64,000 nucleotides of DNA from Octopus vulgaris (Eukaryota), in the NCBI GenBank assembly GCA_951406725.2, contig OX597825.1, positions 19,220,001-19,284,000 on the forward strand, written 5' to 3'. Within the stretch, counting starts at the first letter, position 1; each line of letters opens with the position of its first letter. A program made the position numbers and the translations under genes. The notes beneath the pieces were generated by a model, which ran no database searches, was not told the origin of the DNA, and saw only the letters and a program-made list of their open reading frames with translations. Positions 37,963 to 59,853 of this stretch are shown one piece after another.

Positions 37963-38280
37963 GGTCATTTAACCCTATTATCTCCCCTGATTTCGCTCTT
38001 GCGTCTCCCGTTTGATCTTTGACTTCTGGCCGAAATCAGATTGCCATGTTGATTCGCTAGCCTCTGCACGCATTTTTTTTCTCTCCTTCTTCCTGTGTTT
38101 TTTCTCTGTGTATCTTTCTGTAGAAGAGCGTAGGCTCGAAACGTTAAAGACTTGTTTTATTTATATTTCCTGAGCGCCATACTAATACAATTGTTTGTTT
38201 GTATTCCACCTGCCTTCGTCTTTTGTTTATTTCCGTAAACCTGCCTTCGTCTTTTGTCTATTTTCATGAAGCTTCCCGTT
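37963..38280 (+). mobile_element. Solo 3' terminal repeat of the Penelope-like element, with hammerhead-like motif
   Basis: Close reverse-complement match to 59717-60000. Ends CTTCCCGTT directly into (TA)n and has an extra ~30 bp tandem duplication of CCTGCCTTCGTCTTTTGT. Confidence 0.92.
38113..38150 (+). ncRNA. Minimal type-I hammerhead-like ribozyme, variant core
   Basis: TCTTT-CTGTAGAA-GAGC-GTAG-GCTC-GAAACGTT-AAAGA: stem I TCTTT/AAAGA, stem II GAGC/GCTC, palindromic stem III ACGT. The core has A6 replaced by U. Confidence 0.6.
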
Positions 38281-38449
38281 ATATATATATATATATATAT
38301 ATATATATATATATATATATATATATAATATATATATAATTATATATGTATGTATATACATATATATATATATATGTATATATATATATACACACATATA
38401 TTTATATATATGTCTGTGTTTGTCTGTGTGTCTGTGTGTGCGTTGAATT

Positions 38450-39185
38450 TGAACTCGGAACGTAAAGATGGATGAAATGCCACTAAGCATTTTTCTGAAC
38501 TTGCTAAAAATTTTGCCACCTCATCTCCTTCAATACTACTTTCATACTGGGCCTAAATTTTAGTACGCGGCAAAAATGTTCACAGGGTCCGGGTGAGTCG
38601 AATACATGGAGCCCAGCGCTCAACTTTAACATATGTTATCGAACCGAAAGGATGTACGGCAAAGTTGATCACGGTGGAATTTGAACTCAGAACATAAAGA
38701 CGTACGTAATGACGCTAAACATTTTTGCCCGCTTGCTAACGATTCTGCCAGCTGGCAGCCTTAACCACTTTTTATGTTGTCAAATACAAGGCGGCAAGCT
38801 GGCAGAAACATTAGCAGGCCGGTCGAAATGCGTAGCCGTATTTCATCTGCCGTTACGTTCTGAGTTCAAATTCCGCCGAGGTCGACTTTGCCTTTCATCC
38901 TTTCCGAGTCGATAAATTAAGTACCAGTTACACACTGGGGTCGATGTAATCGACTTAATACCCATGTCTGTCCTTGTTTGTCCCCTCTATGTTTAGCCCC
39001 TTGTGGGTAGTAAAGAAATAGGTATTTCGTCTGTCTTTACGTTCTGAGAACAATTTCGGCCGAGGTTGACTTTGCCTTTCATCCTTTCGGGGACAATTAA
39101 ATAAGTACCAGTTACGCACTGGGGTCGATGTAATCAAAGAGTCCCCTCTCAACAAATCTGAGGCCCTGTGAACAGCGAGGTATAA
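38450..39185. mobile_element. Cluster of family-A SINEs (minus: ~38450-38530, ~38550-38760; plus: ~38790-39010, ~39021-39185)
   Basis: The plus copy begins GGCGGCAAGCTGGCAGAAAC…GAGTTCAAATTCC and contains GTCGACTTTGCCTTTCATCCTTTC…GATAAATTAAGTACCAG. The other pieces match it on either strand. Confidence 0.85.
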
Positions 39186-39296
39186 CTACAGTAGATATTC
39201 TGATTGATACGGTGAGAGAGTAATACCAAGTGAGTCTATGGATGTATGCAAATATATTAATAGATAAATATATATATATATATATATATATATATA

Positions 39297-39953
39297 GGCG
39301 CAGGAGTGGCTGTGTGGTAAGTAGCTTGCTTACCAACCACATGGTTCCGGGTTCAGTCCAACTGCGTGGCATCTTGGGCAAGTGTCTTCTGCTATAGCCT
39401 CGGGCCGACTAATGCCTTGTGAGTGGATATGGTAGACGGAAACTGAAAGAAGCCTGTCGTATATATGTATATATATATATATATTTATATATATGCATAC
39501 ACTTTCTGTTTAAGATTTATTGTAGTGTACATAAATATTATTCTTGAGTGGCTGTGTGGTAAGTAGTTTGCTTACCAACCATATGGTTCCGGGTTCAATC
39601 CCACTGGGCAGGTGTCTTCTACTATAGGCTCGGGCCGATCAAAGCCTTGTGAGTAGATTTGGTAGACGGAAACTGAAAGAAGTCCGTCGTATATATATAT
39701 ATATATATATATATATATATATATTGTATATATATGTGTGTGTGTGTGTGTGTGCGTGTATGTCTGTGTTTGTACCCCCAACATTGCTTGACAACCGATA
39801 CTAGTGTGTTTACGTTCCCGTAACCTAGCGGTTCGGCAAAAGATACCGATAGAATAAGTACTAGGCTTACAAAGTCCTGGGGTCTATTTGCTCGACCAAA
39901 AGTGGTGCTCCAGCATGGCCACAGTGAAATGACTGAAACAATTAAAATAGTAA
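39297..39953 (+). mobile_element. Two family-B SINEs (5' half 39297-39460; near-full copy 39546-39953)
   Basis: Both match 27406-27870. The first ends at the internal (TA)n. Confidence 0.9.
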
Positions 39954-57041: not shown

Positions 57042-57660
57042 TATCTATCTATCTATCTATCTATCTATCTATCTATCTATCTATCTATCTATCTATCTAT
57101 CTATCTATCTATCTATCTATCTCTCTCTGTATATATATATATATATATATGTTTATATATATATATACATATATAAACAACAGTTTGACAGTTTGTCTCA
57201 TTGTGTCAGGCTATCTATCGACACATCTATATGATAGATTCATTATATTTTCCGGATTTTTTCAGATCTGTCACTCTGACGCTCTCACCAACTCTCTGCT
57301 TTTCTGTCTATCTCAATCTCTCTTTCTCTCTCTCTCTCTCTCTCTCTCTCTCTCTTCCTTTATATATATATAAATATATATATATATATATATATATATA
57401 TATATACGCGAGGGTGAGTGATTGTGCGTGTGTTTTGTTTGTGTTTGTGCATGTACACACACACACACACACACACACACATATATATATATATATATAT
57501 ACACACACGCGCACACATACACACATACACACACACACACATATATATATATATATATATATATATACACACGCGCGCACACATACACACACACACACAC
57601 ACACATATATATATATATATATATATATATATAATACATACATATATTATATACATATGC
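57042..57660. repeat. (TATC)n, (CT)n, (TA)n and higher-order (CA)n(TA)n repeats
   Basis: Read directly from the sequence. A (CA)n(TA)n block recurs three times at about 57455-57632. Confidence 0.9.
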
Positions 57661-57914
57661 ATAGAAAATATTTTACTAATTCCAGCTAATGTTCTGTAGT
57701 TGCCGTATAACTCTGCCATTAATTTATTATCTCCCTCGTCTTCTACTTAATTTTTCAGAATTAGACTGATTGATATATGTTCTAAGTTTTCTTTAACCTT
57801 TCCCAGTTAAACAGTCAATATCCGGTTAAAATAGTTTACCATTTTACGCTCATACCAGCTAGATCTCGCCTCTCACATGTAGCCTACATTGTTATTGTAA
57901 ATATATACAATCAC

Positions 57915-59460
57915 TAAGTTCTAAGTCCCTCTTAAATAAGTCTCCCATTCTATTTCGGTCTGTTGCTAAAACCTTGCTATACTTAACCGATTCTGCTTTG
58001 ATTGCTTTCTTTTGAGTAGAGTAAACCACCATTTGTTGTTGACGATACCTCCCGTCAATGCCCTCTTAACTAATGTGCTAAGCTTGTCTTGTCGGGAAAG
58101 ATGCGTTTAACTTCCAGTAACCGGGATCCTGCCGTTGATTCTTATCTAAGTCGAGCGTACAAGTCACGAATGTTTGGGCTGTGTAGCTGACTATGTGAAA
58201 TTGTGGACAAACTACATTATCCCTATCCACTATCATAAAGAATACTCTATCTAAATACGATCTGGACGACCCGATGCGGTTGCTTCATGCCCACATTGGC
58301 ACATTCGAGTAGTCCAGTCGGTACCCGTCAGAGTCAGAAACGTCTGAGCAGGTCAATAAGGCACTTGCATCCCTTCTTCCTATCTATACCCACATAGTCT
58401 AAATGAATGTTCAAGGTAGCGTCCCGATCCCCCACTAAAATCAATGGTGGAGACGTTCCTAGGAAAATCTCTTGACGAAAGAAAAACGGCCGACCTTATA
58501 AGGATGGTGCATACACTGATATTAGTCGAAAAGCACAGCATTTACTGCCATAGAGATCCAAGAAGACCAGCCTGCCCTTCTGCTATTGGAATACTGCCCT
58601 TCTTTCAGATCCAGACTCTTTCACAAAAGCATCGCAATACCACCACCGCCCATTTTCTGCCGAAGATGGGCTACAGGGTCCGAACATGGGGTTGAAGATT
58701 CTGGTTTCGCTTATGGTTACAATATCTATATTTTGTGACTTGATGTCGTTTAACAGGTAACCTTGTTTCCAAGGCTACTCCAAGCCACGCACATTTATAC
58801 TACATATCTTTAGCATGAATCCAGCAAAAGTTTTGTTTCAGACACAAAACGAAAACAAAAGGTGGGAGAGAAAGGAAGTCACTTACTGTTTCGGAAGTTG
58901 GGAACTTTGTCCTCAGTTTCCGTGAAGAGATTTTTATATAGTTTTGACAGATGTTTTTTAAATATCCCTACTGCATTAGGGTAGAGAGATTTCATTAATT
59001 TACGTGTGTTTTGTGTGGTGTGTTGTATGTTAATGTGTTGTGGAAGGGTTGTGCGTAGGTGGTCGTGTGTTTTGCAACTGCTTTTAGTTCTCGGTGTGCG
59101 ACCTGACGTATTGCATCCGGTTCAAATTGTTTATGTTGATTACGGTAGCACTGTTGGTGCTTGTATATTTATAGTTTGGTGCTGGTGTTGTTGTTATGTC
59201 TGGGTATATTGTTGTTGGGAGTGCTATATCTTCCGGCTTTGTTCAATTGAGTGGTTGTTCTTTTCCTTTGGCTTCTTCCCACTGTGGACATTTACCCTTC
59301 TTCCGTCGCCTTCATCGGACGAGATGTCGGAGGAATCAGAACATGGGAGGGGAAGGGTATTGAGGTAAATTTGTTGGTGTGTTGATATTGTTGCAGTTGT
59401 TAGTTTTGGTTGGTGGTTGTTGGGATGTGATGTGTGGGTAGTTGCGGATGAGGGGTTAGT
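57915..59460 (-). mobile_element. Decayed L1/Tx1-clade LINE fragment (probable ORF1 end plus APE endonuclease)
   Basis: Minus strand reads PLILVGDRDATLN…VPMWA*SNRIGSSRSYLDRVF…HIVSYT…DPGYWKLNASF. These are the GDxN, SRxDR, SDH-region and GYWKLN motifs of L1/Tx1 ORF2. Upstream 59.0-59.46 kb encodes a low-complexity T/Q/S/D-rich ORF1-like stretch. Confidence 0.8.
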
Positions 59461-59815
59461 CTACTGTTATTACACCGACAGAGAAGACGGCAACAGACAA
59501 CAATACCGTACTTTCCAAAGAAATTATTTTTCATAGGTACATTCATGTACTTATTGACGCACAGACAGAAACATACATATAAAGACACAACGAACCACGC
59601 ACGCACACACACACACACACACACACACATATATATATATATATACGCACACACGCCCGCACGCACACACACATATGTGTGTGTGAGTATGTGTATATGT
59701 ATATATATATATATATAACGGGAAGCTTTATGAAAATAGACAAAAGACGAAGGCAGGTGGAAAACAAACGAACAATTGTATTAGTATGGCGCTCAGGAAA
59801 TATAAATAAAACAAG

Positions 59816-59853
59816 TCTTTAACGTTTCGAGCCTACGCTCTTCAACAGAAAGA
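59816..59853 (-). ncRNA. Minimal hammerhead-like ribozyme in the Penelope 3' repeat, variant core
   Basis: Minus strand TCTTT-CTGTTGAA-GAGC-GTAG-GCTC-GAAACGTT-AAAGA. Confidence 0.6.

Follow-up and report, generated by a model that had tools for sequence, protein, structure and literature searches.

Penelope-like elements are retrotransposons whose pseudo-long terminal repeats (pLTRs) contain minimal hammerheads with no stem III loop, a palindromic 15.2–16.2 segment and an extra base after A9 (PMC4209133; for this and the other publications cited, our comparisons draw on parts of each source). Such motifs exist in thousands of copies, most of them single and derived from truncated elements, and their activity is low even as dimers (PMC4209133). 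The stretch of Octopus vulgaris DNA analysed here (64,000 nucleotides (nt) of contig OX597825.1, forward-strand positions 19,220,001 to 19,284,000; hereafter the window, numbered from its first letter) contains four motifs of this kind, which fall into three families, A, B and C. In family A the core base A6 is replaced by U, and our analysis supports the view that this change is a family trait and not decay.

Two further groups of described systems bear on this locus. Among Penelope-like elements, the Neptune and Nematis clades are distinguished by a zinc linker that is associated with (TA)n targeting (PMC8557442). In PAc, which is a Poseidon element from Anolis carolinensis, hammerhead cleavage requires the element's own protein, and reverse transcription starts internally 85–92 nt past the cut, a distance that we computed from published figures (PMC11167929). 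Elsewhere, the two core positions altered in the window are also altered in the phage Bcep176 hammerhead (A6C), which is slow yet active and is rescued by Mn2+, and in a viroid hammerhead (U4C), which supports infectivity; activity is low but present (PMC3088659, PMC7151607). Those are rare single motifs, whereas here A6 is replaced by U, a change fixed across an abundant family of retrotransposons.

Four minimal hammerheads with three cores

A preliminary description of the window had reported four motifs with one shared layout, and their coordinates, strands, cores, loops and triplets agree with the sequence:

59816..59853, minus strand: minimal type-I hammerhead, family A; core CUGUUGA, U6 at 59845, N7 at 59844, triplet GUU, predicted cut after 59821
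38113..38150, plus strand: minimal hammerhead, family A; core CUGUAGA, U6 at 38121, triplet GUU, predicted cut after 38145
52256..52290, plus strand: minimal hammerhead, family B; core CCGACGA, C4 at 52261, stem II GGGC/GCUC, triplet GUC
56038..56072, minus strand: minimal hammerhead, family C; canonical core CUGAAGA, stem II with a U·U mismatch, triplet GUA

All four are minimal type-I hammerheads, located in the 3′ ends of Penelope-like retrotransposon copies sited in (TA)n. They have stems I and II, the extra base after A9, GAAA, a palindromic 15.2–16.2 segment and an NUH triplet. A pattern of the shared layout, which was derived from the four motifs themselves and is therefore biased in their favour, matched the window four times and none of 100 dinucleotide shuffles. 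A structure-based scan that left the stem II sequence free gave three window matches, against one match in total over 200 shuffles; it missed the 56 kb copy because stem II there (GTGC/GCTC) has a U·U mismatch. Thus the 4-bp stem II previously ascribed to every copy holds in three of them and fails at 56 kb. That mismatch is the sole exception among 70 stem cells across 10 aligned sequences, the other 69 being paired. Covariation of stem I was also recovered, its fourth pair swapping between families (C–G versus G–C), and two stem I pairs differ on both sides between the window and metagenome groups, representing few independent events. No Rfam hammerhead model appeared among 150 of 297 window rows listed, and none matched 52190–52390 or 59724–60024 at E values up to 10. 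The canonical core CUGANGA (or its U3–A8 swap) is found only at 56 kb; family A has U6 and the 52 kb copy C4.

In the comparison with the minimal hammerheads of Cervera and de la Peña (2014, PMC4209133), the window motifs share the missing stem III loop, the palindromic ACGU, G10.1–C11.1, the extra base between 9 and 10.1, a short stem I and a U-rich 5′ flank, and likewise occur mostly as single copies from truncated elements. The family B stem II (GGGC/GCUC) and GACGAA core are those of the Acropora digitifera Neptune row in Fig. S3 of that study. All 56 rows of the figure that were seen carry U4 and A6 (CUGA or UUGA), as the descriptor used there required, and it is from these that U6 of family A and C4 of family B differ.

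U6 and C4 as lineage traits

For family A, public contigs were aligned to 59724–60024 at 80% likeness in four runs, one from each of four organisms; these were analysed out of 20 runs, among 24 listed, in which the stretch is present (10 studies, five organisms). The runs contributed 11484, 27167, 8133 and 4909 aligned contigs. At position 6 (59845) no letter other than U reaches at least 2% of depth in any of the four. The adjacent N7 (59844) is U, or A at 11–22%, or G at 8–9% (summed depth 1.0–9.2 million), and the method therefore does see variation directly beside U6. The earlier suggestion that A6>U is a family trait gains support from this pair of observations.

The rest of the motif varies in a restricted way. 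Position 17 is A, giving GUA, in 55–87% of depth across the four runs and otherwise U, with no C or G at 2%; GUU, the triplet formerly assigned to the family and present in both window copies, is accordingly its minority triplet. The first base of loop II varies (4.5–22.5% of depth), as do two distal stem I bases (3–14%), and no variant reaches 2% at C3, U4, G5, G8, A9, U16.1, the whole of stem II or G12–A15.1. Five of the six variable sites of the 38-nt motif lie among the 10 positions that we classed as free, in classes set after viewing the table (hypergeometric 0.003); with stem I excluded, the equivalent is three of four variable sites among the 6 free of 28 positions, with the same post hoc classes (0.02). 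Finally, among the loose ends listed, 157–347 contigs per run cease to align at either edge of the motif (59813 and 59852), suggesting that further families with other flanks share the U6 motif.

A metagenome scan with positions 4, 6, 7 and 17 and loop II left free covered 2 of 64 parts and yielded 120 loci of an estimated ~5500. Nearly all of the 130 matches are of the Acropora type, with 86 CUGA, 42 CCGA, 2 CCGU and 0 CUGU cores. C4 is present in 42 of the 44 copies of one subfamily, compared with 1 of 77 across two further subfamilies (9 matches remained unassigned; subfamilies were sorted by downstream k-mers picked after viewing). As the C4 copies are kin, this is evidence of a subfamily trait and not of many events, and the data support recurrence of C4 as such a trait in related elements elsewhere. 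The two CCGU matches comprise one decayed C4 copy and one chance match. Homology to a reverse transcriptase (RT) or endonuclease (EN) was detected at 9 of 121 loci, in 8 of them upstream on the same strand and in 3 together with C4. A (TA)4 run within 200 nt was found in 0 of 129 matches, and (TA)n anchoring is therefore not general to this hammerhead type. The 3′ end lies 94–129 nt past the cut in 28 of the 129, those in which the end motif is present. Head-to-head motif pairs on opposite strands occur in 10 of 119 metagenome loci (the L002–L121 set).

Several candidates were set aside. Metagenome locus L064 lacks stem I, was classed ‘other’ and was dropped from the 129-match analysis. Viral contigs gave 0 matches to the U6 pattern and one to a relaxed pattern, without stem I; the 3 matches in prokaryote genomes, two without stem I pairing and one with G17, were treated as chance. 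C4 and U6 each remove the UGA triplet, but we rejected the idea that this lets a reading frame through, because the endonuclease frame of related loci stops before the motif and the next codons in family A are stops.

The elements that carry the motifs

The family A motif at 59 kb lies downstream of a frame that identifies its element:

60683..62179, minus strand: 498-residue stop-to-stop frame; C-terminal part of an RT, CX4CX2C linker (residues 357–365) and GIY-YIG endonuclease with CxxC and two His

The frame shows 55% identity over 478 residues, endonuclease region included, to the relative P0002, and it matches Pfam RVT_1 with an E value of 2.5e-6, just under the cut-off of that model; PF01541 is present in other top relatives. 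An RT followed by a C-terminal GIY-YIG endonuclease within one frame, with the hammerhead at 59816–59853 on the same strand 830 nt beyond its stop, is the arrangement of endonuclease-bearing (EN+) Penelope-like elements, and the frame and the motif layout together support the earlier assignment of the hammerheads to the Penelope type. The RT had been called intact, a description that does not survive: the frame aligns from residue 324 of an 803-residue relative and has a short TA run at its start, which marks it as 5′-truncated, with ~320 N-terminal residues gone. The 59 kb copy has neither a full-length open reading frame nor the tandem pLTR–frame–pLTR layout; 5′ truncation is usual for the class and thus bears on intactness, not on membership.

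Features of Neptune/Nematis EN+ elements (PMC8557442) are all present: the RT, a CX2-5CxxC linker (CSRPRCRTC at 357), a GIY-YIG domain with CxxC (CISC at 398) and a His pair (in AEHL and SRHF), (TA)n insertion and heavy 5′ truncation. The linker is found in 91 of 104 relatives with the endonuclease motif, among those listed, and the named relatives, among 120 of 793 listed, come from corals, molluscs, sea cucumber and sharks. By their sequence features, then, the elements are Penelope-like and of the zinc-linker (Neptune/Nematis) type. The window copy is itself truncated; Neptune appears favoured over Nematis only by the likeness to the Acropora Neptune hammerhead and by the (TA)n target.

The four elements, each terminated by (TA)n in line with the three (TA)n-anchored families proposed before, are as follows:

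59718..62150, minus strand: family A, 5′-truncated Penelope-like element with RT-EN fragment, low-complexity 3′ untranslated region (UTR) and 3′ pLTR, flanked by a short TA run and (TA)n
37971..38279, plus strand: family A, solo 3′ end with a ~31-nt 3′ duplication; (TA)n starts at 38280
52180..52389, plus strand: family B, solo 3′ end, 5′ boundary approximate; (TA)n starts at 52390
55931..56144, minus strand: family C, solo 3′ end with (TA)n on both flanks

The 38 kb and 59 kb copies are identical at 258 of 275 aligned bases and form a single family, whereas B and C share 74% identity over 101 nt. No family B or C coding sequence was found in the window. The predicted cut and (TA)n are separated by an almost constant spacing of 103, 103 and 111 nt, which grows to 134 nt in the copy with the duplication. 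A second motif, (C/T)TGAGCG-N2-3-CTAATAC, is common to all three families 21–24 nt past the predicted cut:

59778..59796, minus strand: downstream motif (CTGAGCG...CTAATAC), family A, 59 kb copy
38170..38188, plus strand: downstream motif, family A, 38 kb copy
52311..52328, plus strand: downstream motif, family B
56003..56020, minus strand: downstream motif, family C

The same motif is seen in further families among the contig loose ends listed and is absent from the related metagenome elements. In its first half this downstream motif is complementary to the stem II 3′ strand plus G12. The resulting helix, GCUCG:UGAGC, would compete with stem II and has a pair probability of 0.72 in B, 0.31 in C and at most 0.08 in A; it has no covariation support and stands as a lead only, and folds of the whole region were no better than those of shuffles. 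A role for CTAATAC as a splicing branch point was ruled out because B and C have no downstream AG.

This 3′ architecture resembles that of PAc, in which the hammerhead is near the 3′ end, the element ends ~85–110 nt past the cut and targets are AT-rich; Poseidon/PAc differs in having no zinc linker, a canonical core and an open reading frame that starts inside the hammerhead (PMC11167929). The ~31-nt duplication of the 38 kb copy (38200–38270, plus strand) recurs in the contigs of other runs (joints 59756 to 59727), making it a subfamily trait, and may relate to the 30–40 nt ‘tail’ of Penelope-like elements. In family C a pyrimidine tract ending in CAG (56072–56105, minus strand) stops at the first base of stem I, much as an intron has been reported to end at helix I in the Penelope element of Drosophila virilis; the corresponding place in A and B lacks an AG. 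The ~830 nt 3′ UTR of the RT-bearing copy (60025–60680, minus strand) is mostly 102–124 nt tandem units plus a pyrimidine tract, compared with a 3′ UTR of only ~130–150 nt in related metagenome elements.

Other repeats in the window include five tandem copies of a ~151-bp unit at 4779–5542 (~83% match), resembling a short interspersed repeat, and a ~102-bp AT-rich repeat in three partial copies at 63530–63966. A dispersed repeat of ~200 bp at 39295–39499, 46007–46224, 51577–51784 and 56592–56799 (83–94% alike) adjoins (TA)n or (CA)n runs; it is a family resembling short interspersed elements and is unrelated to the hammerhead elements.

What the altered cores may do

Between the two options raised in the preliminary description, an atypical ribozyme or a fold kept for RT recognition, we lean towards a slowed ribozyme. 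That the U6 form still works, cleaving only as a dimer or with the element's protein, has by our estimate about an even chance of being right; it is favoured because every catalytic base except A6 is kept and variation falls where catalysis allows it. By analogy with studied Penelope-like elements, the palindromic ACGU would let two motifs associate in transcripts of tandem copies, the RT-EN protein would bind near the 3′ end and nick (TA)n, and reverse transcription would start ~105 nt past the cut site, with early termination leaving the 200–300 nt solo ends at 38, 52 and 56 kb. U6 and C4 would lower the cleavage rate, which may be tolerated because uncleaved RNA can serve as the insertion template. 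A stronger form of this idea, which we regard as rather speculative, is that a successful lineage fixed a CUGUNGA core that would be nearly dead alone and would need the RT-EN protein, or another metal ion, to become active, with the conserved downstream UGAGCG pairing with the stem II 3′ strand and G12 as an off-switch.

A number of points weigh against a selected, working ribozyme. Only 32 of the 301 positions in the aligned stretch vary at 2% or more; by chance alone, a site such as U6 would thus be invariant in about nine cases out of ten. What argues for selection is instead the pattern of variation, together with the loose ends that share the motif. G16.2, which the dimer palindrome needs, is A in 3–7%, and position 15.2 shows no compensating change. 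Depth in contigs does not measure copy number, rare variants are lost from contigs, and the window itself may derive from one of the runs. When two monomers were cofolded, the minimum-energy structure was not the catalytic dimer. For a type III hammerhead, changes in the CUGA turn, whether single or double, gave low activity, except for a C3/G8 swap, and the low-activity mutants had no second-site rescue (PMC9901934). In Anolis, hammerhead mutations left insertion in vitro unaffected, and RNA sequencing showed no ends at the cut site (PMC11167929).

Part of this evidence would fit a motif that does not cleave and is kept as a fold or sequence bound by RT-EN to place internal initiation ~105 nt downstream, a reading that we entertain tentatively. 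In the one element tested, insertion did not depend on cleavage (PMC11167929), and the weak CUGA-turn mutants (PMC9901934), the near-constant distance from cut to end and the second conserved motif beside the hammerhead all point the same way. Yet the sites that vary are those that catalysis leaves free (N7, H17, which is never G at 2%, and loop II), a pattern that protein binding need not require, and the minimal Anolis template began downstream of the core, with 5′ truncation to +20 still active (PMC11167929). U6 could instead be a disabling change in one master copy that hitchhiked through a recent burst, leaving the motif under no selection. The invariance of 269 of 301 positions at the 2% level and the proliferation of Naiad elements without canonical hammerheads (PMC8557442) speak for such a founder, but the U6 motif appears common to contigs that have lost alignable flanks, three letters are common at N7 against a single one at each of the six other core bases, and U6 holds in four organisms; we consider this explanation unlikely.

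The preliminary description also suggested that the short copies may be non-autonomous and retrozyme-like, relying on the Penelope RT for mobilisation; such a system would have circular RNA intermediates. Animal retrozymes have been proposed to derive from pLTRs (bioRxiv 10.64898/2026.07.22.740005), the lack of B and C coding sequence is compatible with the idea, and the window's short copies resemble animal non-LTR retrozymes in being short and non-coding with a type-I hammerhead (PMC7229834). The proposal fails on layout, however, because retrozymes are tandem arrays and the window copies are solo 3′ ends: known retrozymes are tandem repeats of 150–450 nt with a hammerhead per unit, mostly canonical, and give circular RNAs (PMC7229834; bioRxiv 10.64898/2026.07.22.740005), whereas all four window copies are single. 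The 38 kb copy plainly corresponds to the final ~280 nt of the element that bears the RT, no same-strand motif pair was found in 119 related metagenome loci, and contig depth falls toward the 5′ end as truncation predicts, which is a hint only. The short copies share the 3′ geometry of the RT-linked copy and fit 5′-truncated elements, as truncation is reported for most minimal hammerheads (Cervera 2014, PMC4209133), and we judge the retrozyme reading highly improbable.

With the slowed ribozyme as the preferred reading, the overall system is one already known, and what provisionally appears new is the fixation of an A6U core in one family and the status of C4 as a trait of a subfamily of Penelope-like elements. 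Neither a natural A6U nor a Penelope-like C4 was found in the portions of the literature covered, which include parts of PMC6765202, PMC6155905, PMC11014351 and the supplements of PMC3088659 but neither the Lünse et al. (2017) survey nor the PMC7229834 supplement, either of which may list them.

Penelope-like hammerheads are nearly universal, slow in vitro and, in the one element tested, dispensable for insertion. The U6 core change, fixed in an abundant family, is expected to cut activity, and this family beside sister families with canonical and C4 cores makes a natural allelic series in which to ask whether selection acts on cleavage or on the fold alone. The existence of this family also implies that searches which demand CUGANGA overlook whole families of these motifs. 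If the protein- or metal-gated core were to prove true, then together with the recurrent C4 subfamilies it would mean that Penelope-like elements have been selected for tuned-down, gated cleavage.

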